A stretch of 33,494 nucleotides of DNA, taken from positions 1 through 33,494 of the IMG/VR virus record IMGVR_UViG_3300025389_000060. One strand, written 5' to 3'. The number at the start of each line of letters is the position of its first letter. The first letter of the stretch is position 1. A program made the translations under genes and the position numbers. The notes beneath the pieces are model-generated. The model had not been told where the DNA came from. It did no database searches and saw only the letters and a program-made list of their open reading frames with translations. Shown here piece after piece: positions 2,561 to 24,649 of this stretch. This DNA comes from a virus. Its lineage: Duplodnaviria; Caudoviricetes.

Positions 2561-4304
2561 AAAGACCAATCCCTTTCAGGTAATTGCTGACGTTGCGACC
2601 CACAGAAATTTGTTCTGGAGTCATTTCTTCTTGCTTCTTAGAGATTTCGCGTGTGATCTTTTGAGCTATCAATCTTGGCTGCACTTGCTCAGCGTAGGCC
2701 ACCACAGCAAGGGCAGAGGCAAGAACTCTGTCATCCTTAGCACGACCAGGTGCTCCCAAGAAACCGTCCTCACGCACGATGGTTTTCATTTCTTCCAGCG
2801 TGTCCATGCTGTAGATTTTCATCATCTCGCGCTCAAAGTAATCCTTCATGTAGTTCATCATCCGCTCTTTAGAGTTGTGAGTGGTGACGTACCCCACGGA
2901 GTTAGAAAGCCCACCAAGGGTGTCATTACGCCGCCAGATGTAGTTTTGCATACTGCCAAGGACGTCCATAAGGCCACGACCCATATCGCCTCCTGTAGCG
3001 GCTGCATGGCGTTTCAGGTTGCGGATCTCGTTAATAACTGCTTGTCCCGGGCCGTTAACCTCAAGGTTAAGGGTGGAGTTTTTGTATGCTCCGGCAAGGT
3101 GGGCGATGATCCAGGCGAACTGGTAGGTATTGAGTTCTGAGGTGGCAAACTCAGCCACTTGGTCGAGACCGTTAGCATAGACTCGATACACTTGAATACA
3201 AAATCGGTCTGCCCAGTCTGAGGATCCGTAGGCAGGATCTGCACCGATGACGTAGTAAGCAGTGTCAATGGGTTGCTCCCAGATCTTGAGTGTACACAGT
3301 CGCTCAGTTGCTCGCACGACTTGGGTGTCTTGGAACAGACTACCAAACACGTAGGTGTAGGCTTCATAAGGTTTTGTCTTCGCAATCTTAGCTGCGTCTG
3401 TACAGCGGGAGTTAGAAAAGAAGCTAGTGCCTGTCATCACAAAGGCATAGTCTTCTGTAGGGGGAAACTCTTGGTACATCAGGGACTCGTCTTTAATCCC
3501 TTCTGTCATTTTCCAGCGCCACCAAGCTATCTGGCGGGAGTTGATCTCGTAATTGTAGAGCTTCTTAATGTCCTTGACCCACTCCTTCTCTTCAGGCTTT
3601 AGTCTGCCGTTCCAGTAGGCTTTGTACTCAGGGGTCTCAGCATCAATCATGTAGTACTCGTTACGCCACCAACCACAAAAGATGGCTTTCTGGGTACGAG
3701 CAGTCTTGGCGGTCTTGTACATGTCGTGAAACATGTTGAAGCCTTGTGCGGTGCTCTCAAACATGTAGAGCCGCTCAGGGTTCTTCTCAGCAAGAGAGGC
3801 TATCAGAGAGGCCAATCCCTCTTCGTTTCCCCACGAGGCAGTTTCTGTGCCGTGAAGGTAAGTGATCGCCTTGCCTTGCCCCAAACGAGATTTATTGCCA
3901 GCGATCTGATAAAAAATTCTTGATCTGTTCTTGAGTACAAGCTGGTTTCTATTGTGGGCAGATAACGGGATCTTGTACTGTTTGGGGAGTCCTTCCATGT
4001 ACATGCCCAGAGTCGAGCGGAACATGTCACGGTTTTCCTCCGTATCAGCCACCAGCGTTCCCTGCCAGCCTGGGTGCGTAAACTGCCAGTAGAGGTCGAG
4101 AGCCAACGATATTGTCGTGATACCCAACTGACGACCCTTGAGGATAACAAAGAAGTGAATGTCATTGTCTAACCCTTTTGCTATCTCACTCATCGTGTAA
4201 GTCTGAGTACCCAGCAGCTTACCCATCTTTTGTAAGCCAGCTTCCTTAGTCTCAATCTTCAATTCTGCACAGAACTTGTAGAACTGCTGGAGATTAAATT
4301 TCAT
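2538..4304 (-). CDS. terL: Terminase large subunit
   Basis: 588 aa; Walker A region ILKGRQLGITT, variant Walker B YLHGTE, coupling motif FESTAQG, RNase H-like nuclease motifs IGADPAYG, LEVNGPG and DDRVLA. Confidence 0.95.
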   Translation of the reverse strand: MKFNLQQFYKFCAELKIETKEAGLQKMGKLLGTQTYTMSEIAKGLDNDIHFFVILKGRQLGITTISLALDLYWQFTHPGWQGTLVADTEENRDMFRSTLGMYMEGLPKQYKIPLSAHNRNQLVLKNRSRIFYQIAGNKSRLGQGKAITYLHGTETASWGNEEGLASLIASLAEKNPERLYMFESTAQGFNMFHDMYKTAKTARTQKAIFCGWWRNEYYMIDAETPEYKAYWNGRLKPEEKEWVKDIKKLYNYEINSRQIAWWRWKMTEGIKDESLMYQEFPPTEDYAFVMTGTSFFSNSRCTDAAKIAKTKPYEAYTYVFGSLFQDTQVVRATERLCTLKIWEQPIDTAYYVIGADPAYGSSDWADRFCIQVYRVYANGLDQVAEFATSELNTYQFAWIIAHLAGAYKNSTLNLEVNGPGQAVINEIRNLKRHAAATGGDMGRGLMDVLGSMQNYIWRRNDTLGGLSNSVGYVTTHNSKERMMNYMKDYFEREMMKIYSMDTLEEMKTIVREDGFLGAPGRAKDDRVLASALAVVAYAEQVQPRLIAQKITREISKKQEEMTPEQISVGRNVSNYLKGIGLYGSTPIA

Positions 4305-4543
4305 TATGGTTTCCCCATTTGTTCATCTGTCCACCCCGCTATCTCCCAAGCAACATCTCTGTTCCTAGCCAGCCGGATCAACTCCTTGTAATGCCACTCA
4401 CTGTATTTTGCTTTCCAAGACTTAGCTAGCTTAATCTTTTGCTGCTTCCTAGTGCAGTGCATGGCAACAAGCATTTCTCTTTTCATCTGCAAGCGCGATT
4501 CGTACAACTGTGTCCGTAACGCCACGCTCATAACCTGTCTCAT
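4304..4543 (-). CDS. Hypothetical basic protein
   Basis: Its stop overlaps the terL start; start codon uncertain. Confidence 0.55.
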   Translation of the reverse strand: MRQVMSVALRTQLYESRLQMKREMLVAMHCTRKQQKIKLAKSWKAKYSEWHYKELIRLARNRDVAWEIAGWTDEQMGKP

Positions 4544-4664
4544 AAACTTTTTGTAATTGCTGCTGCTGCATCACCCGCACGGCCTCACTCTGGTAAAGAC
4601 GGATCAACAACAGGTTGCATTGCCACCTTAGTTCATCTTCATCCATCCAGAGGAAATCAGTCAT
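4449..4664 (-). CDS. Hypothetical protein
   Basis: AAGGA RBS before MTDFLWMDEDELR; 71 aa. Confidence 0.55.
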   Translation of the reverse strand: MTDFLWMDEDELRWQCNLLLIRLYQSEAVRVMQQQQLQKVYETGYERGVTDTVVRIALADEKRNACCHALH

Positions 4665-4692
4665 GATTTTCCTTGTCAACCATACAGCACCT

Positions 4693-4917
4693 TTATCTGG
4701 TTCTCCATACTCTGACCCTACCTTCTTCTGTTCGTGCCTCAAAAGCCCTAGCAAGGCGCTTGCCAGCCCTGTAGTTGGCATTGAGCACCTTCGCTCTAGC
4801 CTCCAGCGGCACAACAAAAGAATCCCCTATGTCCATCACCTCGTAAGGGTAGTCATACACCACCCGACTTACAGGCATCTTTATATCTCTATCTATCTCT
4901 ATCTTCACACTAGGCAT
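4693..4917 (-). CDS. Small phage protein (YP..M..GDSF...RVWR type), possibly DNA-binding
   Basis: GAGGG RBS; MPSVKIEID...YPYEVMDIGDSFVVP...GRVRVWRTR, a pattern I recognise from small phage proteins. First gene of the late arm. Confidence 0.7.
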   Translation of the reverse strand: MPSVKIEIDRDIKMPVSRVVYDYPYEVMDIGDSFVVPLEARAKVLNANYRAGKRLARAFEARTEEGRVRVWRTR

Positions 4918-4953
4918 ACAACCCTCTCTACATATATCTGCACTATACACTCG

Positions 4954-4979
4954 AAAAAAAGCCCGCACAAGTGGCGGGC
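4954..4979 (-). terminator. Intrinsic terminator-like hairpin upstream of the late operon
   Basis: Minus strand reads GCCCGC-cacttgt-GCGGGC-TTTTTTT. Confidence 0.65.
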
Positions 4980-5130
4980 ATAAAGTGAACAAGTGCAACT
5001 GCGAATTGCAGGGAAATAGTAGCAGGGTTTCCTGCGGAAAACTAGAAAATTTTTATGGGGGGGTAATGTGGGGGGCACACCTTTTCACCCCCTCCGTCCC
5101 CATTCAAGTTCCACACCTCACATGTAATGA

Positions 5131-5210
5131 CTGAGCACTATGTCAACGTGTCCATTCCCTAATTGAGCACATGCCGAGCACTGAGCACTGGCTAAGCACT
5201 AAGCAAGCAA
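5131..5210. repeat. Short (G/A)AGCAC repeat cluster
   Basis: tgagcacta, tgagcacat, cgagcactg, tgagcactg, taagcacta, aagcaagcaa in the non-coding divergent region. Confidence 0.7.
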
Positions 5211-11154: not shown

Positions 11155-11909
11155 GTAACGCTCTTATTCCCTACAACGATGTAGAAAAGATGGGTTCTGC
11201 TATTGCTAAATCCAACTTGTTTGGCGTAAAGACACCTGAGCAAGCAGTTGCTCTCATGTTGATCGCACAAGCAGAAGGATTACACCCTGCTATTGCAGCT
11301 CGTGACTACAACATCATTCAAGGCCGTCCAGCACTCAAAACAGATGCAATGCTGGCTCGTTTCCAGCAAGCAGGTGGCAAAGTACAGTGGGAGGTATATA
11401 CAGATGCTGAAGTCAAAGGCACTTTTAGCCATCCGCAAGGAGGCACGTTGTCCGTCTCGTGGACTTTTGCACAGGCAAAGGCTATCGGGCTTACAGGCAA
11501 AGATAATTGGCGTAATTACCCTCGTGCGATGCTCCGCGCTAGGTGCGTATCTGAGGGCATCCGCTCCGTCTATCCGGGCTGTGTCGTTGGCGTCTACACG
11601 CCTGAAGAGGTCGAGGACTTTTCATCACCTACGCAACCAGCGCCATCGTTCACGCCTGCACCTACACTTGAAGTTCTAGAAGACGTGCGAGGCGAAGAAG
11701 TCTTCCCACTGTTCGTTCCAGGCTCTCCAGAACCTCACAAGGTCTACAACACGCTAGAAGAATGGCATACAGGCTTTACAGCTATGGAAGCCCGTATAAA
11801 GCTCTCTACGAAGCTGGATGACGACATTAAGGAGCTGAAGCTGTCTGACCTTGCTGATTGCAATAAAGAGCTTTTAAATGCGTACTATCAACAGCCTGCT
11901 ACCAAGTAA
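11151..11909 (+). CDS. RecT/Red-beta-like single-strand annealing protein
   Basis: IIQGRPAL, NWRNYPRAMLRARCVSEGIRSVYPG and GVYTPEE motifs; close to the YqaJ gene. Confidence 0.8.
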   Translation: MSNALIPYNDVEKMGSAIAKSNLFGVKTPEQAVALMLIAQAEGLHPAIAARDYNIIQGRPALKTDAMLARFQQAGGKVQWEVYTDAEVKGTFSHPQGGTLSVSWTFAQAKAIGLTGKDNWRNYPRAMLRARCVSEGIRSVYPGCVVGVYTPEEVEDFSSPTQPAPSFTPAPTLEVLEDVRGEEVFPLFVPGSPEPHKVYNTLEEWHTGFTAMEARIKLSTKLDDDIKELKLSDLADCNKELLNAYYQQPATK

Positions 11910-11970
11910 AGAGCACGTAGAGGCATGGGTAGAACGAGTAAGACATAAACTTAAACCAGAGATTACAGAA

Positions 11971-12379
11971 ATGGCGTACGATCAAAAGAAGGGCTTTGCC
12001 CACAAAGAAATGCCCGGTTTCGGGGTTGCTTACCAAGTCCTGCAACAGGAAAAGAAAACAGAAAAGTCACCAGACTATGAAGGTTTCGTTGTCCTGAAGT
12101 TCGACTACAAAGCAGGAGAAAAGCTGCAACTGGGCATGTGGGCTAAACCCACTTCCAGAGGCACAACGCTGCTCTCCCTGAAAGAAATACAAAGCAGGAG
12201 AAAAGCTGCAACTGGGCATGTGGGCTAAACCCACTTCCAGAGGCACAACGCTGCTCTCCCTGAAAGAAAACACCTTCCGCAAGGAAAAGGCTGCTGAGCA
12301 GAATCGCCCTGTAGAAGTGTCTTACTCTTACAAACCCCGTGTGCAAGCAGGGGACGATGGGGACGATATACCCTTTTAA
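11971..12379 (+). CDS. ssb: Single-stranded DNA-binding protein, frameshifted here by an 82-bp duplication
   Basis: Removing one repeat copy gives 108 aa: MAYDQKKG...KSPDYEG...LGMWAK...LSLKENTFRK...GDDGDDIPF, ending in a canonical SSB acidic tail. Confidence 0.75.
12106..12269 (+). repeat. Exact 82-bp tandem duplication
   Basis: 12106-12187 is identical to 12188-12269 (TACAAAGCAGG...CTGAAAGAAA). Confidence 0.95.
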
Positions 12380-12895: not shown

Positions 12896-13639
12896 ATGAG
12901 TAATCCACACATCTTGATAGCCACTCCCATGTACGGTGGCATGTGTACAGGCTACTACACGCAAAGCATGGTCGGTGTAGGCCCGTATATGAAGGAAAAC
13001 AACGTAGACATCAGCATCACCATGATGTTTAACGAATCCCTCATCCAGCGAGGCAGAAATGCGCTTGTAAACCAGTTTATGCACAACACCCAGTGCACTC
13101 ACCTGATGTTTATAGACGCAGACATCAGGTTCAGCCCCGTAGACATCCTAAAAATGCTCCAGGCTGACAAAGAAGTCATCTGCGGTATCTACCCCAAGAA
13201 AGAGATCAACTGGGCTTCTGTAGAGGCTGCTGTACACCGTGGAGTGCCTACAAATGAACTCACCAACCACACAGGTGCGATGGTTATCAATTTAAAAGAC
13301 TATGCAGGTGAGGTAACAGTGCCTGTAGACCAGCCGCTAGAGATCTGGAATGGCGGTACAGGGTTTATGCTGATAAAGCGTGAAGTGTTTGAGAAAATGA
13401 AGGATCACGTTGACAGTTATATCAACAACGTGAAGGTACTCAACACTGAGCAGCAAGCTGAGCGTATTTACGAGTATTTCCCCGTCTTTATTGACGAGCA
13501 TGAACTTCTGCTGTCTGAGGATTTTGGCTTTTGTAAGAAAGCACGAGATCTGGGGATTAAGATCTGGGCAGCACCGTGGGTGAAGTTAGGCCACTTCGGG
13601 ACTTACCTGTTTGAAGGTGGCCTGCTACCAGCAGCTTAA
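12896..13639 (+). CDS. GT-A fold (GT2-like) glycosyltransferase
   Basis: ILIATPMYGG, RGRNALV, HLMFIDAD (DxD), GTGFMLIKREVF, LSEDFGFC and LGHFG motifs. Confidence 0.8.
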   Translation: MSNPHILIATPMYGGMCTGYYTQSMVGVGPYMKENNVDISITMMFNESLIQRGRNALVNQFMHNTQCTHLMFIDADIRFSPVDILKMLQADKEVICGIYPKKEINWASVEAAVHRGVPTNELTNHTGAMVINLKDYAGEVTVPVDQPLEIWNGGTGFMLIKREVFEKMKDHVDSYINNVKVLNTEQQAERIYEYFPVFIDEHELLLSEDFGFCKKARDLGIKIWAAPWVKLGHFGTYLFEGGLLPAA

Positions 13640-13910: not shown

Positions 13911-14501
13911 TTATAGAATTTGCAAAGCCTGCTGCATGAGTTTTATACGCTCTTCCAGCCCTATTGTCCCACCATTGATATGCTTGGTTAGCCCAACCCA
14001 GTTCTCGGCCTCTGCAAGGGGATTACAGCCGTGCGTAGCCCAGAACCACCCGGCACTCATAGCTGCGTACATAGGTTGAGCTACAGGAGCAGGGTTCTTA
14101 ACAAAGTCCTGCCCGACAGCCTGCCCGAAGTGCCAGTAGTTGTCGTGCCCAGTCAACTGGATGCAACCCCTGCCGTGGTACAACCACCCATCCCCAGACG
14201 CCTCATCACGGTTGCCCATACGGTTGGCGTAAATCCTGTTTGCGATACGTTGAGGCTGGTTGGCGTACTGAGGTATCTCTTCCGGTTTGAACTTGTGCCC
14301 GAACAAACGCTCTAATGTTGCAGTTCTGTAGCTCAGGTTTTCTTCCAGCACCCTGAAATGATTGCACTCATGAGAGCACTGCCCTATAAAAGCAGCTTGT
14401 TTACGCACATCATCTATGCCAAACCGTTTAAAAGTAGCTTCCAGAGGTTCCAGCCACTCTGCACCTATGCCTAGAGCATGTAGCTTGTCAGGCGTAATCA
14501 T
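13911..14501 (-). CDS. Endolysin, glycoside hydrolase family 19
   Basis: AAFIGQCSHEC, EENLSY, YANRMGN, DGWLYHGRGCIQLTGHDNY, SAGWFW and INGG motifs. Confidence 0.92.
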   Translation of the reverse strand: MITPDKLHALGIGAEWLEPLEATFKRFGIDDVRKQAAFIGQCSHECNHFRVLEENLSYRTATLERLFGHKFKPEEIPQYANQPQRIANRIYANRMGNRDEASGDGWLYHGRGCIQLTGHDNYWHFGQAVGQDFVKNPAPVAQPMYAAMSAGWFWATHGCNPLAEAENWVGLTKHINGGTIGLEERIKLMQQALQIL

Positions 14502-14965
14502 TTAACACCTGCATTTACGGTTTCTCTGACGTTGTTGTAGGTTGTGATGCAGGCGTTGAGCTGGGTGATGGCTGTGTCGCCTTCTGCTGCGATGGCGATA
14601 AGATCTTTGATAGCCTGTCGCTCAGTGTCGGACTCATTGGTTGTATTTCCGCTGGGAGTTCCGGCATCTGCACTGGTTTGTACACTACAGGTGGGGAGCC
14701 GCAGCTCACCAGAGTCAGCGCGAGCAACAAGATTAGCTTGCTTGGTTTTAACATCGTCTTTAGCCCTCTTTAATGTTGAATTAGCAACTGCCAGCTTGGT
14801 TGTCAGCTCCGCTTCCTTTGCTCGAGCCTCCTCATTCAACCGCATAATCTCCGCTTGGTCTTCCTCAACCCTAGCTTGGTATCCTGCATGATGCTCGTAA
14901 GCCCCAAACCCTGCTAGAGCCAACAACAAGCCCAATATCACCCACGGGTTCATAAGACTAAACAT
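14498..14965 (-). CDS. Rz: Rz-like inner-membrane spanin
   Basis: N-terminal TM (WVILGLLLALAGFGAY), coiled coil, GELRL, C-terminal AAEGD..ITQLNACITTY. Confidence 0.85.
   Translation of the reverse strand: MFSLMNPWVILGLLLALAGFGAYEHHAGYQARVEEDQAEIMRLNEEARAKEAELTTKLAVANSTLKRAKDDVKTKQANLVARADSGELRLPTCSVQTSADAGTPSGNTTNESDTERQAIKDLIAIAAEGDTAITQLNACITTYNNVRETVNAGVK
14515..14754 (-). CDS. Rz1: Rz1-like outer-membrane lipoprotein spanin, fully embedded in Rz
   Basis: MLKPSKLILLLALTLVS-C lipobox followed by a Pro-rich mature part, in a shifted frame inside Rz. Confidence 0.8.
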   Translation of the reverse strand: MLKPSKLILLLALTLVSCGSPPVVYKPVQMPELPAEIQPMSPTLSDRLSKILSPSQQKATQPSPSSTPASQPTTTSEKP

Positions 14966-15431
14966 TGTTGGCCTCCGCTCTGGCAGCAGACATACGTTCA
15001 CGTTCATGATCTGGCTCTAATGTTGGGGGGTAATTAGGCGCAGGGGGTGGCGTCCAGCTTGGAGTCATCATCACGACAGGAGCAGGTGGCGGGGCAGGTG
15101 GAGGTGTATATGCAGCCGTGTTGTTCTTGGCTGCTGTAATCATGTTAGACGCCTCTGTGGTGATGCCCTTTGTCAGGATGCCGCCTATACCGCCAACAAT
15201 CAGCAAAACAATGTCGTTCAGCATCTTTGTATAGGCTTGGTCTATAGGAGCCATAGCCTTCATAGGCTGCGTCACGAACGTAACGCTGTAGAGCAGCGCA
15301 ATCGTGATGAAACCAAAGATCAACGTCACCATGATGATGACAAACGCCCGTACACGGGTGTCTATCTCATCGGCAGTTAGTCGCTGCTGATCCGGATGGC
15401 GGGTTAGAAGGGCTAGGAGGATTTCCTTCAA
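14958..15431 (-). CDS. Two-TM membrane protein with Pro-rich tail (holin candidate)
   Basis: TM helices FVIIMVTLIFGFITIALLY and DIVLLIVGGIGGIL; lies in the lysis cassette. Confidence 0.6.
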   Translation of the reverse strand: MKEILLALLTRHPDQQRLTADEIDTRVRAFVIIMVTLIFGFITIALLYSVTFVTQPMKAMAPIDQAYTKMLNDIVLLIVGGIGGILTKGITTEASNMITAAKNNTAAYTPPPAPPPAPVVMMTPSWTPPPAPNYPPTLEPDHERERMSAARAEANNV

Positions 15432-15606
15432 GTTTCTTCTCCAGAATAGGGGCTATCAAATAGTCAGGACAGGTTTGAGCAAACTCACAAGCAGGTTTCT
15501 TACACTGCTCGTCCCCGAAATGTTTGGGATCCTGGCAATGGTAGCGATATTGGTCGCCACACCCACTAATTGCGATGGTGAACAGGATGGCTAGTCTTTT
15601 TAGCAT
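15367..15606 (-). CDS. Cys-rich lipoprotein
   Basis: MLKRLAILFTIAISG-C lipobox, then YRYHCQDP...CKKPAC...CP. Confidence 0.75.
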   Translation of the reverse strand: MLKRLAILFTIAISGCGDQYRYHCQDPKHFGDEQCKKPACEFAQTCPDYLIAPILEKKLEGNPPSPSNPPSGSAATNCR

Positions 15607-16072
15607 AGTCAACACTATCCTCAATAAACATGTAGCCTACATAGCCCAGCACAAGAACAAGAACAATTACAAGAGCCACAATCATGAACTCTTCTTGCTC
15701 TTCCTTTTGTTTCTTAGCTCTGTCTTTAGCAGCTTGCTCAGCGTACTTGTCGGCCTTGTCCATCTGACCAGCACGCTCTTTAATCTTGTTCCAGACATCC
15801 ACCTTGCCAGCCTGCATGAATAGCATCTGGAGTTCTGCCTCAAACTGCTTAGTCTGCTCCAGCGCCATCTCAATCTGGATGGCTGTGCCCATGTTGGAGG
15901 CTTTGCCGGAGTCTTTAGCTTCTTTGACCGCTTGGACTGCGTTTGTCTTAGCGTCGAAATACTTGCCCAGAACAGGGCCGAGAGATCCTACGTCGTCAAC
16001 CGTCTGGCTGACTTTCTTAACCAGCTTAACAGCCGACTGGATCGCTGCTAGGGCGGTTAGGGGATCAATCAT
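15566..16072 (-). CDS. Coiled-coil protein with C-terminal TM anchor
   Basis: MIDPLTALAAI...; TM FMIVALVIVLVLVLGYVGYMFI. Confidence 0.75.
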   Translation of the reverse strand: MIDPLTALAAIQSAVKLVKKVSQTVDDVGSLGPVLGKYFDAKTNAVQAVKEAKDSGKASNMGTAIQIEMALEQTKQFEAELQMLFMQAGKVDVWNKIKERAGQMDKADKYAEQAAKDRAKKQKEEQEEFMIVALVIVLVLVLGYVGYMFIEDSVDYAKKTSHPVHHRN

Positions 16073-17354: not shown

Positions 17355-18713
17355 TTATTCCTGTGACTCTCGTTGAGTAGCTTTAACTGTGGGAGGCAAA
17401 AGTGTTTGAGCTGTAGCCGCACGATCTGCTAATCTGCTTCTTAGTCGGGGCTGCATAACCGTACCAAGAGCTTTAGCAAGAGGATTCTCCGTCAACGTGC
17501 CCATAACTGCTTTGTAGCCAGTTTGAGGGACGTTAATCTTGGCCTTCATAATGTCGCCATACTCAGCCAAATTCTCAAACAGAGGATTGCGTTTAGCTGT
17601 GCCGCCGGTGCGTCTTGTTATCTCGTCCAGCAAACCTTTAGGGTTTAACTGCCCAGCAGAAGTAACTCCAGCATTACCGCCTAACTGGTTGGCATCTTTA
17701 ATACTTGCGTAGGCGTTGTACTTCTTCCGCCAGTCAGCGTACTTTGTTGCCAAGTCTTTAGGAAGGTTTGTTTGAGCCAAGTCTTCAAGAGCGTCCTTAA
17801 GGTCGTGCAGCATCCCAGCTTGAGGGCCTTTAGCTGTGCTCAAAGCGGCATTGACTTGGGTAATTGCACTTCTCAAGTCTTCAGCTTTGAATTGAGGGCT
17901 AACTAATGAACCGCCAGTACGTTGCCCCGCAATGTTCTTTTCAAGGATAGTCTTAGCAACATTACCTTGTTCACCAAAAGCACCTTCCATCTTGTTAGCA
18001 AGGTCAGTAATCTTTTGTTGAAACTGAGGTGTAGCGTTGAAGGTCTTGCCAGCAAAAATGTTCTTTACTTCTGTGCCAAGCTCATCGCCAGTTTTTTCAA
18101 TCCAATCAGCGTTGACATTTTTAGTCTTAGATCCAGCTCTAGAGGTCGCTTCTTCAGTGAACTTGTTTAAGTTTCTGAGGCTGCTTTGAGGCGTGTCTCC
18201 AGCGCCATACTTCATCCCCTGCTCAGCTCTAGCGCCAGGGCCAATCTCATAAACCTTGCTGGCTTTCTTGGCTAAGTCTTCTAAAGGCTTTTGAATGTAG
18301 CCCATAGTCCTACCGGCAATATCTCTGCCAAGTTGAGGTATACCGCCGCCAACCAACTCAGCAACACCCTGATAAGACTTAGGCAAACCAATCTCTTCAG
18401 CGGCTTGTCCTAGTCCAGTAGCACCGACAAATCCAAGAGCAGCAGGAACAGCTCCAACACCAGTTGCACCAGCAGCCAAAGCATAAGGCAAGTTGGTAGC
18501 TGCGCGTTTGGTAAGTCTTTCGGTAAATGTTGTTGGCTGAGGTAAATTTGCCTTTTCAGCGGCCCTCTCTCCAACAAAAGGAACCGCCTCTAAAACACCT
18601 CGTCCAACTTGTTGAGCTGCGCCTTTAAAACCGCCAGCAGAAGTTGCAGGAGGAGTTATCTTGACCTCTCCGTCTTGAGAGTCTGGAGCAATAATTTTTA
18701 CTTCATCATCCAT
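17355..18713 (-). CDS. Putative internal virion/DNA ejection protein
   Basis: 452 aa, A/G-rich and helical with a hydrophobic segment; lies after the tail genes, as P22 gp7/gp20/gp16 and T7 gp14-16 do. Confidence 0.55.
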   Translation of the reverse strand: MDDEVKIIAPDSQDGEVKITPPATSAGGFKGAAQQVGRGVLEAVPFVGERAAEKANLPQPTTFTERLTKRAATNLPYALAAGATGVGAVPAALGFVGATGLGQAAEEIGLPKSYQGVAELVGGGIPQLGRDIAGRTMGYIQKPLEDLAKKASKVYEIGPGARAEQGMKYGAGDTPQSSLRNLNKFTEEATSRAGSKTKNVNADWIEKTGDELGTEVKNIFAGKTFNATPQFQQKITDLANKMEGAFGEQGNVAKTILEKNIAGQRTGGSLVSPQFKAEDLRSAITQVNAALSTAKGPQAGMLHDLKDALEDLAQTNLPKDLATKYADWRKKYNAYASIKDANQLGGNAGVTSAGQLNPKGLLDEITRRTGGTAKRNPLFENLAEYGDIMKAKINVPQTGYKAVMGTLTENPLAKALGTVMQPRLRSRLADRAATAQTLLPPTVKATQRESQE

Positions 18714-20302
18714 TATTTGCCCCCAACCTCGGAGATAACGCCGCCGTTGATAATGTAAATCTTGCCACCAAACTCAGCCTTGTGACCATCACTGAGACCA
18801 CCCAGAGCTTTTTGAACCTTGTCAGGAACAGTGCTCTGAGGAGAACGCTCTTTTATGTAGTCGTCAATACTCTTGGCTTCAGAGAACGGGAACTTCTCAG
18901 GGACGTTTGATCTCTCAATGTTGAGAAAGTAAGGACGAAGGTTTCTGTTGTTTTCATCAGCACGTTCACGAACAACTGTGAGCAGCGTCTTAGGACGAGA
19001 AGCCTGATCGTAGAAGTTTTGAAACTGGCGATCAAGATAAACTGAGCCACGCTGACCAGCACTTTGAGCATCTGACAAAGCCAAGCTAAACAACCGCTTA
19101 GAAAGGACTTTTGCCTTTTCAGCAGCGTCAGCGCTAATGGTTTTGCTTTGCACAGCCTTGTCAATACCTTGCTCGACAAGTGCTGCTTTTTGATTTGCGG
19201 CTTGAGTCTCGTCAGGGTTCTGGATGCTCTTAATTGCGTCCATCTTGACGATGTTGCGGATAGCAGCCAAAGCGCCAACAGCATCGGGATTACGTGCAAT
19301 GTAGTCAGCAACTTGCTCAGACTCTTGAATTGCTCGGTAAGAACCCATGATGCGTTTCTTATCATCTGTGGAAGCTCCCACCAAACGCTGAGCAGTGCCT
19401 TCAGGATAGTCCTCAGCAATACCCCTCAGAGCTGGGCCAATAGCCTGCAATGCTTTTTCATCTCGTCTTAAAGGCGCTTCATCCAGTCGTCTTTGCTGGA
19501 GGCCTTCTTCAAACAAGTTGTGTCGTCTTGTTTCTTGATGAGTGCGCTCAGTTTCTCTCCGACGCTCTTCAGCATCTTGCAACTTCTGCTCAGCCGCTTT
19601 AGCTTTCTCCAGCATACTTACGGTATCTCTTATCTGATCGTAAGCATAAGCAGGGCCAAACTTCTCTAGCGAATCCTGAATAAAACGTGCGTTGTGCTCA
19701 GCGATAGCCATCCGAGCCTTTGCCATGCCTTCTTCTCGGTCATTGGCATACGTCTTCATGGCGTCTTCGTACTGAGTCTTCAGGCTCTGAATGGTCTTAT
19801 CCAGCGTTTTAAAGTTCTCGTCAAACTTGTCTTTTTCTTGTTTGTAAATGTCCTGGCGACCTTTTTGGTGGCCTTCAAGCATCCCATTCATGGCAGACAT
19901 AGCAGCCTGAGCATTACCCTTGCTCTTGCCACCGATAGCAAAACCAAGAATGTTAGTCAGGGTGAACAAGAGGCCCAGATCGCCAGCAGTTTCTTGTGTA
20001 GGCACAAACTTGGTATCAGCTTGCTCTTTCACCTTTTCACGGTACTCAGCACGGAAAGGATCTGTCTCTACAGCCTTTTTAAATGCCTCACGACCTTGTA
20101 CGTCAGCCTCTGACAGCATCCTTGTTTGCTCAGCCTTCTCACCAGCTTGCGCTTGCTGCAACATACCCTTGCTCGTTCCTGCTTCAGTTAACTTCTGACG
20201 AGCAGACTGAAGCTGGTCATCAGTAGTCAACTTAGGAGTAGGCTCACGCATAGCCTTGGTAGCAGGGTCAGAATAGAACCCAGTTAAAGAGGTATCCATC
20301 AA
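18713..20302 (-). CDS. Putative internal virion/DNA ejection protein
   Basis: 529-aa coiled coil with one hydrophobic helix (LGLLFTLTNILGFAIGG). Confidence 0.55.
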   Translation of the reverse strand: MMDTSLTGFYSDPATKAMREPTPKLTTDDQLQSARQKLTEAGTSKGMLQQAQAGEKAEQTRMLSEADVQGREAFKKAVETDPFRAEYREKVKEQADTKFVPTQETAGDLGLLFTLTNILGFAIGGKSKGNAQAAMSAMNGMLEGHQKGRQDIYKQEKDKFDENFKTLDKTIQSLKTQYEDAMKTYANDREEGMAKARMAIAEHNARFIQDSLEKFGPAYAYDQIRDTVSMLEKAKAAEQKLQDAEERRRETERTHQETRRHNLFEEGLQQRRLDEAPLRRDEKALQAIGPALRGIAEDYPEGTAQRLVGASTDDKKRIMGSYRAIQESEQVADYIARNPDAVGALAAIRNIVKMDAIKSIQNPDETQAANQKAALVEQGIDKAVQSKTISADAAEKAKVLSKRLFSLALSDAQSAGQRGSVYLDRQFQNFYDQASRPKTLLTVVRERADENNRNLRPYFLNIERSNVPEKFPFSEAKSIDDYIKERSPQSTVPDKVQKALGGLSDGHKAEFGGKIYIINGGVISEVGGK

Positions 20303-21369
20303 GCAGTTCCTCCTGTCGTACCGCCACCAGGTGTGCCGTACACAGTTCTAGCGATATTTTGTGCATAACTGGCAGTGAGCTGGTTAACATACTGGTCAGC
20401 TTGAACACCAGCTTGAATAGCACCTTGAGCAATCTTGTCGCCAATCTGCTGTAATTGCAAGCCCATATTCATCTGTTGCTGCAACAAGTTGTTGGTCAGT
20501 TGAGCAATCTGTGTTTGCATTTGTGCAGCACCCACACCACCGCTAGCCTGCACTTGCTGAGCCATCTGAGCTTGTGCCGCTTGAAGAGCTTGCTGGTTAG
20601 CAGGGGTCAACGTACCTGATGCAGCCTGAGCTTGCAACTGTTGACCTTGTTGTTGGTAAGGCGCAGCCTGTGCCATTAACTCTTGTTTGGTTTGTTGGCC
20701 TTGTGCTTGTGCTCTACGAGCTTGAGAAGCGCCCAACAGAGCTTGCAAGCCACCACCAATGCCTTTGCCTAAAGCATCTGAACTAATACCCAGAGCCTTA
20801 GCTGCGTCACCAAACAATCCAGTTTTCTGTGCAACTTGCTGGTCTTTAGTTACTGGAGGTTGTTGAGAAGTAACATCAGGAGTAGAAGCAACATCGCCTG
20901 TTGGCGTGGCTGCTGCTGGGCCATAAGCAGCGTTCTCAGCAGAAATCTCTTGTTGACGGAAACTTTGCTGACCAGGCAGACCGGTTGAAGGGGCGTTCAA
21001 ATAAGCGTTAGCCGCATCAAAACCACCAGATGGTTGAGCGGCAGGGGCTTCTGGTGCAGAGACAGGAGCATTACTTACACCGCCGCCAGCTTGGACATTG
21101 GTAACAGGCTCAGAACTTATAGGAGTAGGGGAAGGCTCACCTGTTGCTATGTTAGTAGGCTGAAGGTCAAACCCTTCTGTATCGTCGTAGCTTTTAATTC
21201 CGGTGTCTTCCACCTCTTTGCCGCTACCGCCGTGCCGCTTTAGGAGCGCAGCCTCTCTGTCGTTGATAAACGCCAGTTTCTCTCCCGGAGGAGCTTTCTT
21301 CTGTAACAGGGCCGCTAGCTTTTTAGCACTGCTGCCGATTCCGGTGATGCTGCTGAGATGTGTTGCCAT
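20299..21369 (-). CDS. Putative pilot/ejection protein, Gln-rich
   Basis: LAFINDREAALLKRHGGSG...TGIKSY N-terminal motif; Q/A-rich C-terminal half. Confidence 0.55.
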   Translation of the reverse strand: MATHLSSITGIGSSAKKLAALLQKKAPPGEKLAFINDREAALLKRHGGSGKEVEDTGIKSYDDTEGFDLQPTNIATGEPSPTPISSEPVTNVQAGGGVSNAPVSAPEAPAAQPSGGFDAANAYLNAPSTGLPGQQSFRQQEISAENAAYGPAAATPTGDVASTPDVTSQQPPVTKDQQVAQKTGLFGDAAKALGISSDALGKGIGGGLQALLGASQARRAQAQGQQTKQELMAQAAPYQQQGQQLQAQAASGTLTPANQQALQAAQAQMAQQVQASGGVGAAQMQTQIAQLTNNLLQQQMNMGLQLQQIGDKIAQGAIQAGVQADQYVNQLTASYAQNIARTVYGTPGGGTTGGTA

Positions 21370-23636
21370 TATTCCAATCCTAGAGCGTCACGCAGACGCA
21401 AAGATGACTCATTCCATACGTTTCTACGGGGTTTACCAGTCTCTAGTGATTGTATTTCACCGCCTTCACCGCCGCTTGTCAACCCTTGTGTTGTACCCGT
21501 TGTTATCTGTGGAGCCACCCCTAAAGCCCGAGCTAACGAGGATGTCTTGCTAGGCCCAGCCGTGATTGACAGCGGGATGTTCGACAATTCTGGCGCTTGT
21601 ACGTTGGCAACCTGACTGGAATCCACCGTTTCTGGGATAAACGTGTCAGTAACGTCAACAGTTGGTATTTCTTTTGTGTCCGTCACCGTGACATTACCCA
21701 TATCCGTTGTGGTCGGTCTAGGAGCAACAACGTCAATATTGCCGTAGTTCTTGATGGCTGTATCAGCGGTTGGAATCTCACGTTGGCCCACAACGTCTAC
21801 AGTTCCATAGCTTGTTGGTATCTCACGCTGACCTACAACATCCACATTACCGTAGTTTTGCACAGCGGTGTTTGACGTAGGAATGTCTTTTTGTCCGGTT
21901 ACAACAACAGTGCCAGCATCAGGAACAGAAGTTGGCCCTGCACCCGTTACAGCAGCATTAGACGTAGGAATATCACGCTGACCGACAACTTCTACTGTCC
22001 CAGCACTGGGCGCAGATGATCCACTTGTGCCTGTAACAGCAGTTGGCACATCACGTTGTCCAACAACATTTACAGTGCCAGCACTCGGAGTAGCATTACC
22101 AGCGCCTATCAAATCAATAATGGCCTGATCTTTAGCCGGAATGTTTCCAGAGTCTACGACCTCAACATTTTGCAAAGGTGCAGCAGGGCCGGTGATTGCT
22201 GTTTTTTCTGGGGCGACAATAGGCCCAGCAGCTACACCCGTGGTTGACGTAGTAGCGTTTGCCGGAGATACGACAGGAATATCTTTCTTGTCTGTCACCG
22301 TCACGGTATCTGCCGGAGTTGTGCCGCTAGTTGTGGTTGTAGGCGTGGTTGTCGTTGTTACAGGGACAACATTGTCAGAAGCGCCAGTTACCGTCACGTT
22401 GGCAGCAGGCGTCGTGGTAGATGCAGCGTTATTCAACCCAAGTTGATTTATAAGCGCAGCAGTATTGTTTGTTGTAGCTACATTTGTGTCTTTAGCCCCC
22501 GTAACAGTGACGTTAGGCTGTGTAGTCGATGTTGTTGTAGGTATGCTGTCAGTCGTGCCAGCCACATTAACTGTTGGCGTTGTTGTCGGTGTGGTTTCGA
22601 CAACAGCGTTAGGATCAGGCTGGCTACCTATAGATCCTGTCCTTGTATAGGGAGAAGCAGAGGCTTGAGCATCTGAAATGGGCGACTTCGCCGTGCTGTC
22701 ACCGGGCAAGATAGAGTTAAGGTTGCCGCTACCTAACTGACCAGCAAGGCTAGCAAGAGTGGCCTGTGTACTACCCGTTCCCAGTGCAGTGCCCAGAGTA
22801 GACGCTAAGGCTGTACCAAGGTTTGTTGCTTGAGTAGGTGTAACGCCTGTTAATTCTTGAATAGGAGACGGGGTAGTAACACCTGGCACATCTGTAGTGC
22901 CTTGAGTTCCCAGTGCAGCACCTGTCGCACCACCGACAGCTCCACCAGCAGCAGCCTGAGCAATCTGATTAACGTCTTTGCCTTGAGCAGCAGCAGTGAT
23001 GGCAGAACCTGTGGCACTGGTAATCGCAGAAGCAACAGCAGGGCTACCTATAGCCGCATTTAGGGCTTGCACAGCAGGCTGAGATTGTGTGTTAACAAGC
23101 AAGTTAACACCAGCGTTTTCTATAGCCTTATCTAGCGGAACGCCCTGTGCAGTTTGTACGGCAACACTGGCAGCAGCAGAACCAACTTGTGCGGCAACAG
23201 TGTCGGTTAATGTAATGCCAGCAGAAGCAGCCGCATCTGCAATCGTTCCTGCCAGAGCTTCACCGATACCAGGCAAAGCAATAGCAGCAGCTATTTGAAT
23301 TACAGGGTTAGAAGCTACATTTTTAAGGGTAGCCCCTAGTCCTCCTCCATCTGCCTTTGCTTGGTAAGTTACGGCTCCAGTAGACGGGTCAAAAGAATAG
23401 ACTTGACCATTCAGAGAGGCAGCGCCAGTTACTTGACCCTGTGCGTTGTATTGAGTGCCATCTGCGCCGCTATAACCAGTAATTTGAGGCGTACCAAAAT
23501 AAGAGCTTTGCCCGCTATAAATTGGGGTTAATGCGGCTTGAGTGTTGTATCCCATCGCGGGCTGTTGAGCCGCAGCCATTTGATCTGGCGTCAGGTTTGA
23601 TAAACCTAAGCTCTCAGCGGTTACAGTTGCCATCAA
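21369..23636 (-). CDS. 755-aa low-complexity virion-region protein with tandem TonB-box-like repeats
   Basis: A/G-rich hydrophobic N-terminal half; C-terminal half has about 13 (T/N)-V-x-V-(V/T/A)-(G/D/A) motifs on Thr/Pro linkers. Confidence 0.7.
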   Translation of the reverse strand: MMATVTAESLGLSNLTPDQMAAAQQPAMGYNTQAALTPIYSGQSSYFGTPQITGYSGADGTQYNAQGQVTGAASLNGQVYSFDPSTGAVTYQAKADGGGLGATLKNVASNPVIQIAAAIALPGIGEALAGTIADAAASAGITLTDTVAAQVGSAAASVAVQTAQGVPLDKAIENAGVNLLVNTQSQPAVQALNAAIGSPAVASAITSATGSAITAAAQGKDVNQIAQAAAGGAVGGATGAALGTQGTTDVPGVTTPSPIQELTGVTPTQATNLGTALASTLGTALGTGSTQATLASLAGQLGSGNLNSILPGDSTAKSPISDAQASASPYTRTGSIGSQPDPNAVVETTPTTTPTVNVAGTTDSIPTTTSTTQPNVTVTGAKDTNVATTNNTAALINQLGLNNAASTTTPAANVTVTGASDNVVPVTTTTTPTTTTSGTTPADTVTVTDKKDIPVVSPANATTSTTGVAAGPIVAPEKTAITGPAAPLQNVEVVDSGNIPAKDQAIIDLIGAGNATPSAGTVNVVGQRDVPTAVTGTSGSSAPSAGTVEVVGQRDIPTSNAAVTGAGPTSVPDAGTVVVTGQKDIPTSNTAVQNYGNVDVVGQREIPTSYGTVDVVGQREIPTADTAIKNYGNIDVVAPRPTTTDMGNVTVTDTKEIPTVDVTDTFIPETVDSSQVANVQAPELSNIPLSITAGPSKTSSLARALGVAPQITTGTTQGLTSGGEGGEIQSLETGKPRRNVWNESSLRLRDALGLE

Positions 23637-24649
23637 GTTACTCCTAGTGCTGCTGCTATTTGCTCGTGTATCGTCTGGTGAACGCCTATCCAGTCGTAGA
23701 AGTCGTCTTCAACATTAAAGTCTGCGTCCAACAACTGGAACGGATTATCCAGCCCCAAAATCTTAGCTACAGCCTCATGCTGCTGGTTATGTAACAACAA
23801 CCAGTCATCCAAGTTCTTAGGGTCTGCGTCGAACAAGGGGTAATCTGGGGTCGCCTGTCCTTGACGCATCATTGTTTCATAAAACACCCTGTGCTGTATA
23901 GCATTGTGGAACAAAAACTCTTGTAAACCATCTATATCACCAAACTGCACGTACGACAAGGCATCTAGGTTAATCCCTGCTGTGCCGTACCCCTGTGCTA
24001 AGTTGTCAGGCGTCTTAATGACGTTCTCAGGAACACTGACAAACATGTTCCAGGTATCGTTACCCTCTTGTAGCGGGGCATTGATACCGATAACAGAGAC
24101 AATGTTGCCTGCAAATACGTCAGCACCGTCCGTATCATTGCTGTTGATAGAGATGAGGATGCTCTCAGTGCCTGCAAAGACATCCGCACCATCGGTGTAG
24201 GTCAGCCTGCCAGCAACGGTAGGCCCACCCAAGGCTGCTAGCGTGTCTGCCCCATCTGTATAGGTGAGTGACGCAGATATAGAGCTGGTAACAACGGCAG
24301 ACAGAACATCTGCACCATCTGTGTAACTTACAGACGCACTGATAACTGGGCCAGCACGACCCGTAAACGTATCTGCACCATCCGTGTACGCTAAGACAGC
24401 AGAAGCTACAGGCGTTAGCGCACCTGAAAACGTGTCTGCCCCGTCTGTGTAGGTCAGACTGGGGGTAGGATTAGGGTTTACGTTAACTTGGACTGTGTTT
24501 GTCCAAGCAACAAGGGCTGAGCTGTTATTCGTCCACGTTACTGTGGCAGAACTGTTGTTTATCCAGCCAACAACATAGGATATAGGCTTGGTAGAGCCTA
24601 GTAGGTCTGCACCTTCAGTAACCGCAACTGAGATTGACGGGCCAGCCAT
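23633..24649 (-). CDS. Structural protein: 21-aa TDGAD repeats joined to a His-rich C-terminal domain
   Basis: Six TDGAD repeats at 21-aa period; C-terminal HNAIQH, HNQQH and HQTIH. Confidence 0.7.
   Translation of the reverse strand: MAGPSISVAVTEGADLLGSTKPISYVVGWINNSSATVTWTNNSSALVAWTNTVQVNVNPNPTPSLTYTDGADTFSGALTPVASAVLAYTDGADTFTGRAGPVISASVSYTDGADVLSAVVTSSISASLTYTDGADTLAALGGPTVAGRLTYTDGADVFAGTESILISINSNDTDGADVFAGNIVSVIGINAPLQEGNDTWNMFVSVPENVIKTPDNLAQGYGTAGINLDALSYVQFGDIDGLQEFLFHNAIQHRVFYETMMRQGQATPDYPLFDADPKNLDDWLLLHNQQHEAVAKILGLDNPFQLLDADFNVEDDFYDWIGVHQTIHEQIAAALGVT

Follow-up and report, generated by a model that had tools for sequence, protein, structure and literature searches.

TonB-box-like motifs in a probable ejection protein of an uncultured freshwater podovirus and their possible part in entry

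Phage T1 needs TonB. In TonB-dependent transporters, the proteins that carry a Plug domain (PF07715), TonB is engaged through the TonB box, which is unstructured when free and is reported to bind TonB by parallel strand augmentation (PMC3602595). Ton-dependent bacteriocins such as colicin B, pyocin S2 and klebicin C are described as mimicking this box in a flexible segment that recruits TonB–ExbBD; theirs is a single, essential N-terminal box, accompanied by receptor-binding and toxin domains. According to one study, a TonB pull dislodges 50–60 aa, and one box is enough for the import of bacteriocins ten times longer than this stroke (PMC12927319). Strand augmentation with a periplasmic energy transducer is also reported for g3p, a virion protein of Ff phages, which engages TolA through its N1 domain during entry without a need for coupling to the proton-motive force (PMC7391070). 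In phage P22, the ejection proteins gp7, gp20 and gp16 are described as being packaged in a disordered state, and the word TonB is absent from the main text of a preprint on the P22 channel.

The window, meaning the whole stretch of DNA analysed, is a 33.5-kb virus record that is 94% complete and comes from an uncultured freshwater podovirus. Pfam and PHROG searches identified head and packaging genes (terminase, SU10-like portal and adaptor, and major head protein, the portal match lying slightly under the Pfam cut-off) and tail genes (a head-closure/nozzle-like gene and a tail fibre). After the tail genes come four consecutive genes without any family match, of 754, 356, 528 and 452 aa, and the lysis region lies beyond this block. 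It contains a GH19 endolysin gene and an Rz-like spanin gene in which an Rz1-like lipoprotein ORF is embedded, and another small ORF in the region (15367–15624, minus strand) likewise resembles a Cys-rich lipoprotein. All 20 data sets listed as carrying the sequence are freshwater or lake metagenomes, with no RNA data set among those listed. A search of 50,697 records returned two spring-metagenome genomes as the only close relatives and no cultured relative; the capsid is conserved at 87–89% identity. Although L002 and L003 are near-identical to the window phage, they have a different tail fibre, another type of endolysin and differing genes 3 and 4 in the block, indicating that the host-facing genes are strongly mosaic. 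Elsewhere, the window has a perfect 82-bp tandem duplication at 12106–12269, at the end of an ORF at 11878–12228, which is possibly an assembly artefact or a recent duplication. It also has a glycosyltransferase-like gene at 12896–13639 (plus strand; PHROG 34859, E 4.5e-7) with a 247-aa look-alike in L003; speculatively, its product could modify Thr-rich virion proteins.

Spanins imply a host with an outer membrane, and the Rz-like spanin with its embedded Rz1-like lipoprotein ORF thus makes such a host likely. No host was assigned from relatives among the 50,697 records, from bin matches or from the endolysin, which was uninformative. Six matches from the host search, on short contigs (1.3–7.6 kb) in four unrelated bins (Bacteroidota, Alphaproteobacteria, Saccharibacteria and a proteobacterium), were rejected as likely mis-binning; the Saccharibacteria bin, whose gene 1 is outside the scored set, had no Plug match. 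In a sample of 61 Pseudomonadota genomes, 58 had a TonB_C match.

The four-gene block sits downstream of the adaptor, nozzle and fibre genes in a phage without a tail-tube or tape-measure match. It resembles the P22 gp7/gp20/gp16 genes in its place after the tail genes and in its predicted hydrophobic helices, but it has no sequence or fold match to them. Position and predicted helices together suggest that these are probably ejection genes. The first-pass annotation had called gene 1 a putative ejection protein; gene 1 does head the block, and position and helices agree with that label, but homology to known ejection proteins is nearly absent, with a PHROG match in only 1 of 60 block proteins of relatives (PHROG 26400, at the gene-4 position) and none for gene 1. 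Two observations concern the neighbours of gene 1. In the relatives L007, L021, L022 and L073, gene 1 opens with a sequence resembling the N-terminal motif of gene 2 (LAFINDREAALLK..GGSG type; 21369–21200, minus strand), which suggests a shuffled packaging or processing module. The upstream gene contains YTDGADT-type repeats whose number varies (338 aa in the window versus 401 aa in L003, at 3950–5155), and its 113-aa C-terminal domain (minus strand) is highly conserved, with five invariant His and several invariant Asp/Glu residues, so that it possibly binds metal; it has no Pfam or PHROG match and about 450 relatives in viral contigs.

For gene 1 itself, the most likely start codon is not the TTG at 23636 but the ATG at 23633; this codon overlaps the stop of the upstream gene. 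Gene 1 with its array is not an assembly artefact, since one contig of an independent 2023 run covers positions 21300–23630, with 56 differences. Among the differences listed, 32 of 38 are synonymous (14 of 17 within the array), and to judge from the sequence the gene appears to be under a purifying pattern. Its product has no Pfam or PHROG match. The A/G-rich, hydrophobic N-terminal half described in the first-pass annotation was borne out by composition (aa ~100–300) and by predicted helices, which AlphaFold2 (AF2) placed with moderate confidence at aa ~115–285 from a six-sequence alignment; this core likely inserts into the membrane. From the same alignment, AF2 gave pLDDT values below 50 over aa 288–741. 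Together with a T/V/A/P/G-rich composition, this agrees with the linkers having been called disordered and Thr/Pro/Ala-rich, and the linker is likely disordered as far as prediction goes. Foldseek matched nothing to the full-length model at E ≤ 0.001, and profile searches of the PDB with the gene-1 core, gene 2 and gene 3 were blank. An Atlas search gave nothing usable for the repeats; for the core, all its leads stayed under 0.9.

Relatives were collected by using the conserved domain upstream of gene 1 as an anchor. Of the 110 loci found, 22 were dropped; in the other 88, gene 1 is complete and has the family C-terminus, and 68 of these remained after removal of redundancy. The hydrophobic core is common to 61 of these 68 orthologues, most of which also end in WNExSLRLxDALG; core and C-terminus are joined by a hypervariable linker. 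The C-terminal segment occurs in orthologues with and without boxes and is a candidate packaging or assembly signal. A profile of the core matched 478 representatives at E ≤ 0.001 among 1.84 billion, and the family C-terminus is present in 127 of the 150 representatives listed, a set that overlaps partly with the 68 orthologues. The linker also contains a second motif, D-x-x-[IV]-[IL]-D-L-I, with 27 matches in 18 of 68 orthologues (0.15 in shuffles) and six copies in L071. Controls with this hand-fitted pattern gave 1 match in genes 2–4 and 0 in 364 upstream proteins, and the motif was recovered de novo in 27 of 61 linkers. It accompanies strong TonB-like boxes in seven orthologues and occurs alone in 11.

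In the window, all 13 motifs that the first-pass annotation had listed were found in the order given, at nt 22574–21645 of the minus strand, corresponding to aa 354–663 of gene 1 (Table 1). A hand-fitted pattern matched 13 times, whereas 10,000 shuffles gave 0.18 matches on average and never more than 3. Among 130 complete family members this is the longest array. Spacing of the motifs is irregular, at 11–46 aa (mean 25). At the DNA level no tandem array covers the motifs, except for a 6-bp unit at 22330–22358, and of 386 codon pairs that encode the same residue in different copies, 259 show synonymous differences. An origin of the array by recent tandem duplication of DNA was rejected on the strength of the repeat scan and this divergence. 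Across five close homologues the motif columns were no more conserved than the linker columns, a weak test in which the compared segment was offset by one residue. A self-contained beta-solenoid or fibre, which would have spoken against the original proposal, was not seen: such repeats have a regular period and a confidently predicted stack, whereas the spacing here is irregular and AF2, from a shallow alignment of six sequences, predicted no folded stack.

Table 1. Features of the gene-1 locus and its surroundings (window coordinates)
Feature	Position	Strand	Basis
Upstream gene, 338 aa; C-terminal 113-aa domain at 23636–23974 used as anchor	23633..24649	-	relatives search
Gene 1 of the four-gene block, 754 aa, probable internal/ejection protein	21369..23633	-	position, predicted helices
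Family-conserved A/G-rich hydrophobic helical core, aa 110–240	22914..23306	-	composition, AF2, family profile
13 TonB-box-like motifs in a low-confidence, likely disordered linker	21645..22574	-	pattern, profile scores, AF2
First bases of the motifs	22574, 22514, 22400, 22307, 22169, 22076, 21998, 21911, 21848, 21803, 21740, 21695, 21662	-	
Second linker motif DQAIIDLI, aa 502–509, predicted short helix	22107..22130	-	pattern, AF2
Strong copy AGTVVVTGQK, aa 573–582, 12.8 bits	21888..21917	-	transporter profile
Strongest copy MGNVTVTDTK, aa 645–654, 15.3 bits	21672..21701	-	transporter profile
Conserved C-terminal segment ending WNExSLRLxDALG	21369..21461	-	common to orthologues with and without boxes
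Gene 2, 356 aa, conserved, window copy without boxes	20299..21369	-	annotation, profile scan
Gene 3, 528–529 aa, without boxes	18713..20302	-	annotation, profile scan
Gene 4, 452 aa, without boxes	17355..18713	-	same-position gene of L041 matches PHROG 26400, 'DNA ejection protein'
Rz-like i-spanin, embedded Rz1-like lipoprotein ORF at 14515–14754	14498..15007	-	sequence searches

The resemblance of the linker motif to TonB boxes was then measured with profiles built in both directions. On the transporter side, 90 of the best-scoring Plug-bearing proteins were taken from the 61-genome Pseudomonadota sample, and in the 78 non-redundant ones kept, unsupervised motif search found L-[DEGP]-[ETP]-[VIL]-V-V-T-A-[TS]-R, mostly 14–18 aa before the Plug. 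At a threshold of at least 12 bits, a profile trained on transporters only gave 58 matches in 26 of the 68 gene-1 orthologues (1.48 per 1000 aa; shuffles 1.0). Within the block the boxes are confined to gene 1, with one match in 53 gene-2 proteins and none in 50 gene-3 or 39 gene-4 proteins (1 in 142 overall). The same profile found 2 matches in 17,687 aa of transporter plugs and barrels (0.11 per 1000 aa) and 14 matches in 364 upstream proteins (0.14 per 1000 aa; shuffles 2.8), whereas the 127 complete representatives among the matches listed gave 116 in 57 proteins (shuffles 4.0). In the other direction, de novo motif discovery recovered a TonB-box-like motif in 40 of 61 phage linkers, and a profile trained on phage linkers only, whose training sites included one window copy, placed its best site 8–40 aa ahead of the Plug domain in 23 of 30 transporters, where 1.5 were expected by chance (one of the 23 sites differs from that of the transporter search, and three are near duplicates). 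Columns of the two profiles correlate at 0.80 when in register, and never above 0.42 when shifted. The agreement extends to positions that were left free in the family pattern: a leading L/I/M/V in 42 of 50 family sites versus 59 of 78 transporters, an acidic residue in 34 of 50 versus 48 of 78, and a terminal R/K in 34 of 50 versus 45 of 78. A tblastn search with the arrays of two relatives against phage records returned only matches at E ≥ 2. The two reciprocal, non-circular profile tests, which include the comparison with transporter N-termini that had been proposed at the outset, indicate that the family linker motif is strongly TonB-box-like, following the consensus L-[DEGP]-[ETP]-[VIL]-x-V-T-[AG]-x-R common to both groups, in a linker that is predicted to be disordered.

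For the window copies the resemblance is mixed. With the transporter-trained profile they score 2.2–15.3 bits, with seven of 13 at 7 bits or more, two at 12 or more and four below 4, compared with a median of 13.4 bits and a lower quartile of 7.4 for held-out real TonB boxes. Five copies reach at least 8 bits, against 0.29 in shuffles, and none of 1000 shuffles contained five. A leading hydrophobic residue is present in three of the 13 copies, the acid in one and the terminal R/K in nine; relative to the TonB-box consensus, the window copies are degenerate in sequence. The likeness first proposed for this array therefore holds at the level of the family and is uncertain for the window copies. 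The phage locus further differs from transporters in that the record has no Plug match and no barrel, and in that the copies are many and lie C-terminal to the core. Unlike the bacteriocins, it would appear from the sequence to present 13 internal copies in a virion-type gene that has no receptor-binding or toxin domain and whose boxes are absent in many relatives, although the array would recruit TonB likewise. It is also unlike Ff g3p N1, which is described as a folded domain that pairs antiparallel, with Tol and not Ton, at one site (PMC7391070).

The degenerate copies raise the question of whether the repeats are a low-complexity spacer or a self-assembling beta-structure that resembles TonB boxes by composition alone. 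The four copies below 4 bits are consistent with this, as are the unrelated PT, GTG and acidic repeats that orthologous linkers also hold. Moreover, beta-rich tail proteins exceed their own shuffles (14 versus 2.8), which suggests a raised background in which the transporter profile partly reads generic VxVT strands. However, composition-matched shuffles yielded about 1–4 matches against the 58–116 observed (116 among the listed representatives), and the phage-derived profile would not be expected on this account to find the transporter box in 23 of 30 cases. Self-assembly is further opposed by the irregular spacing, by the lack of a predicted solenoid and by the synonymous divergence of the copies. 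We consider a purely compositional or structural origin quite unlikely.

The distribution of strong boxes bears on what they might do. No box of at least 12 bits is present in 42 of the 68 orthologues or in 70 of the 127 complete listed representatives, although some orthologues without a strong box carry weak variants. As had been expected at the outset, the motif persists across relatives while linker and copy number vary; a strong box is nevertheless missing from most of the orthologues. In a FastTree phylogeny of the anchor and gene 2 covering 58 loci (ten of the 68 were left out, as gene 2 was incomplete or gene 1 split), strong boxes occur in 23 loci with at least 12 gains or losses. Shuffling states on the tree gave a mean of 18.3 changes, and 2 of 1000 shuffles were as low as 12, which suggests some kinship signal yet repeated turnover; strong-box presence differs even between close relatives. 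In the listed representatives, the boxes are C-terminal to the core, mostly 100–290 aa from the C-terminus, which counts against a TonB-box role in that transporter and bacteriocin boxes lie close to the N-terminus; 94 of 110 spacings between the boxes are at most 60 aa. Copy number and box strength showed no trade-off (rho -0.05, n = 53).

From these data, it seems fairly probable that the array binds TonB in one way or another, a judgement that pools two readings, an aid to entry and a decoy. The reading we favour, at somewhat less than an even chance, is that the boxes of the injected protein engage host TonB in the periplasm and so assist entry without being essential to it. The gene-1 product would be ejected from the virion, its hydrophobic helical core would lodge in or pass the outer membrane, and the linker, which in extended form would span at most about 108 nm, would then lie in the periplasm. 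Each box could pair as a parallel beta-strand with the C-terminal domain of TonB; with many weak copies on offer, a scarce TonB molecule would more probably be caught, and the proton-driven TonB pull would tether the forming conduit or draw it toward the inner membrane. Since relatives without strong boxes exist, such a function would be accessory, depending on host or niche, and no ratchet that the phage cannot do without.

A strict serial ratchet is a special case of this tether, in which the boxes would be successive handholds less than one TonB stroke apart and the proton-motive force would haul the conduit, and possibly the leading DNA end, across the envelope. As part of such a scheme, a widespread family of freshwater podoviruses would bring its own TonB boxes instead of using those of a receptor. 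The spacings of at most 60 aa fit this idea. However, the proposal that successive handholds power entry is weakened by the 42 of 68 orthologues without a strong box, the 12 or more changes on the tree, the presence of only two strong copies in the window and the sufficiency of one box in bacteriocins, and we regard the strict ratchet as rather doubtful.

All of the sequence evidence for TonB likeness would apply equally if the boxes were a decoy, with ejected copies sequestering TonB to block TonB-dependent superinfecting phages, bacteriocins or nutrient uptake and playing no part in entry. An array suits titration better than pulling, for which a single box is reported to suffice (PMC12927319), and patchiness with fast turnover fits a competitive accessory trait. 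TonB is described as limiting in the cell, and free box peptides as lowering colicin killing and phi80 infection (PMC9841981). Against a decoy, the same source gives the free pentapeptide as effective only above 100 uM, a HasR box peptide is reported to bind HasB at about 25 uM (PMC3602595), and the window copies are weak. In addition, the few molecules ejected would presumably act locally and briefly. A decoy without any role in entry is rather unlikely on this evidence.

A further alternative is that the motifs are strand-augmentation handles for TolA, for some other periplasmic protein, or, at the packaging stage, for a structural part of the phage itself such as the capsid, portal or nozzle. 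In its fold and way of binding TolA is similar to TonB, and Ff g3p is reported to use it (PMC7391070); the repeated DxxILDLI motif shows that the linker is a general platform for motifs, and the window copies depart from the TonB consensus. Against this, the family motif matches TonB boxes beyond a generic strand, in the Leu, the acid, the Thr-Ala/Gly and the Arg, and a motif for a packaging partner should be universal given the conservation of the capsid, yet it is patchy. A partner other than TonB is therefore unlikely, and we return to the tether, in which TonB is captured during entry, as the preferred explanation.

No described phage virion protein with a TonB-box array was found in the full-text literature, a body with few subscription journals, in agreement with the first-pass annotation. 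As far as sequence comparison can tell, the array represents probable TonB-box mimicry in a phage internal protein, as an accessory and not a universal trait. It is an open question how podoviruses power the passage of ejection proteins and DNA across the diderm envelope, and for bacteriocins one study states as unresolved how TonB moves polypeptides far longer than its stroke (PMC12927319). Podovirus entry energetics and TonB-dependent import of long polypeptides would be connected by a virion protein that carries TonB boxes itself. Such boxes would also serve as a marker in the sequence of uncultured phages that their hosts possess TonB, and the arrays would be natural multi-box constructs for models of repeated strokes; if the boxes act as a decoy, superinfection exclusion would take a new form in which the particle itself delivers the agent.
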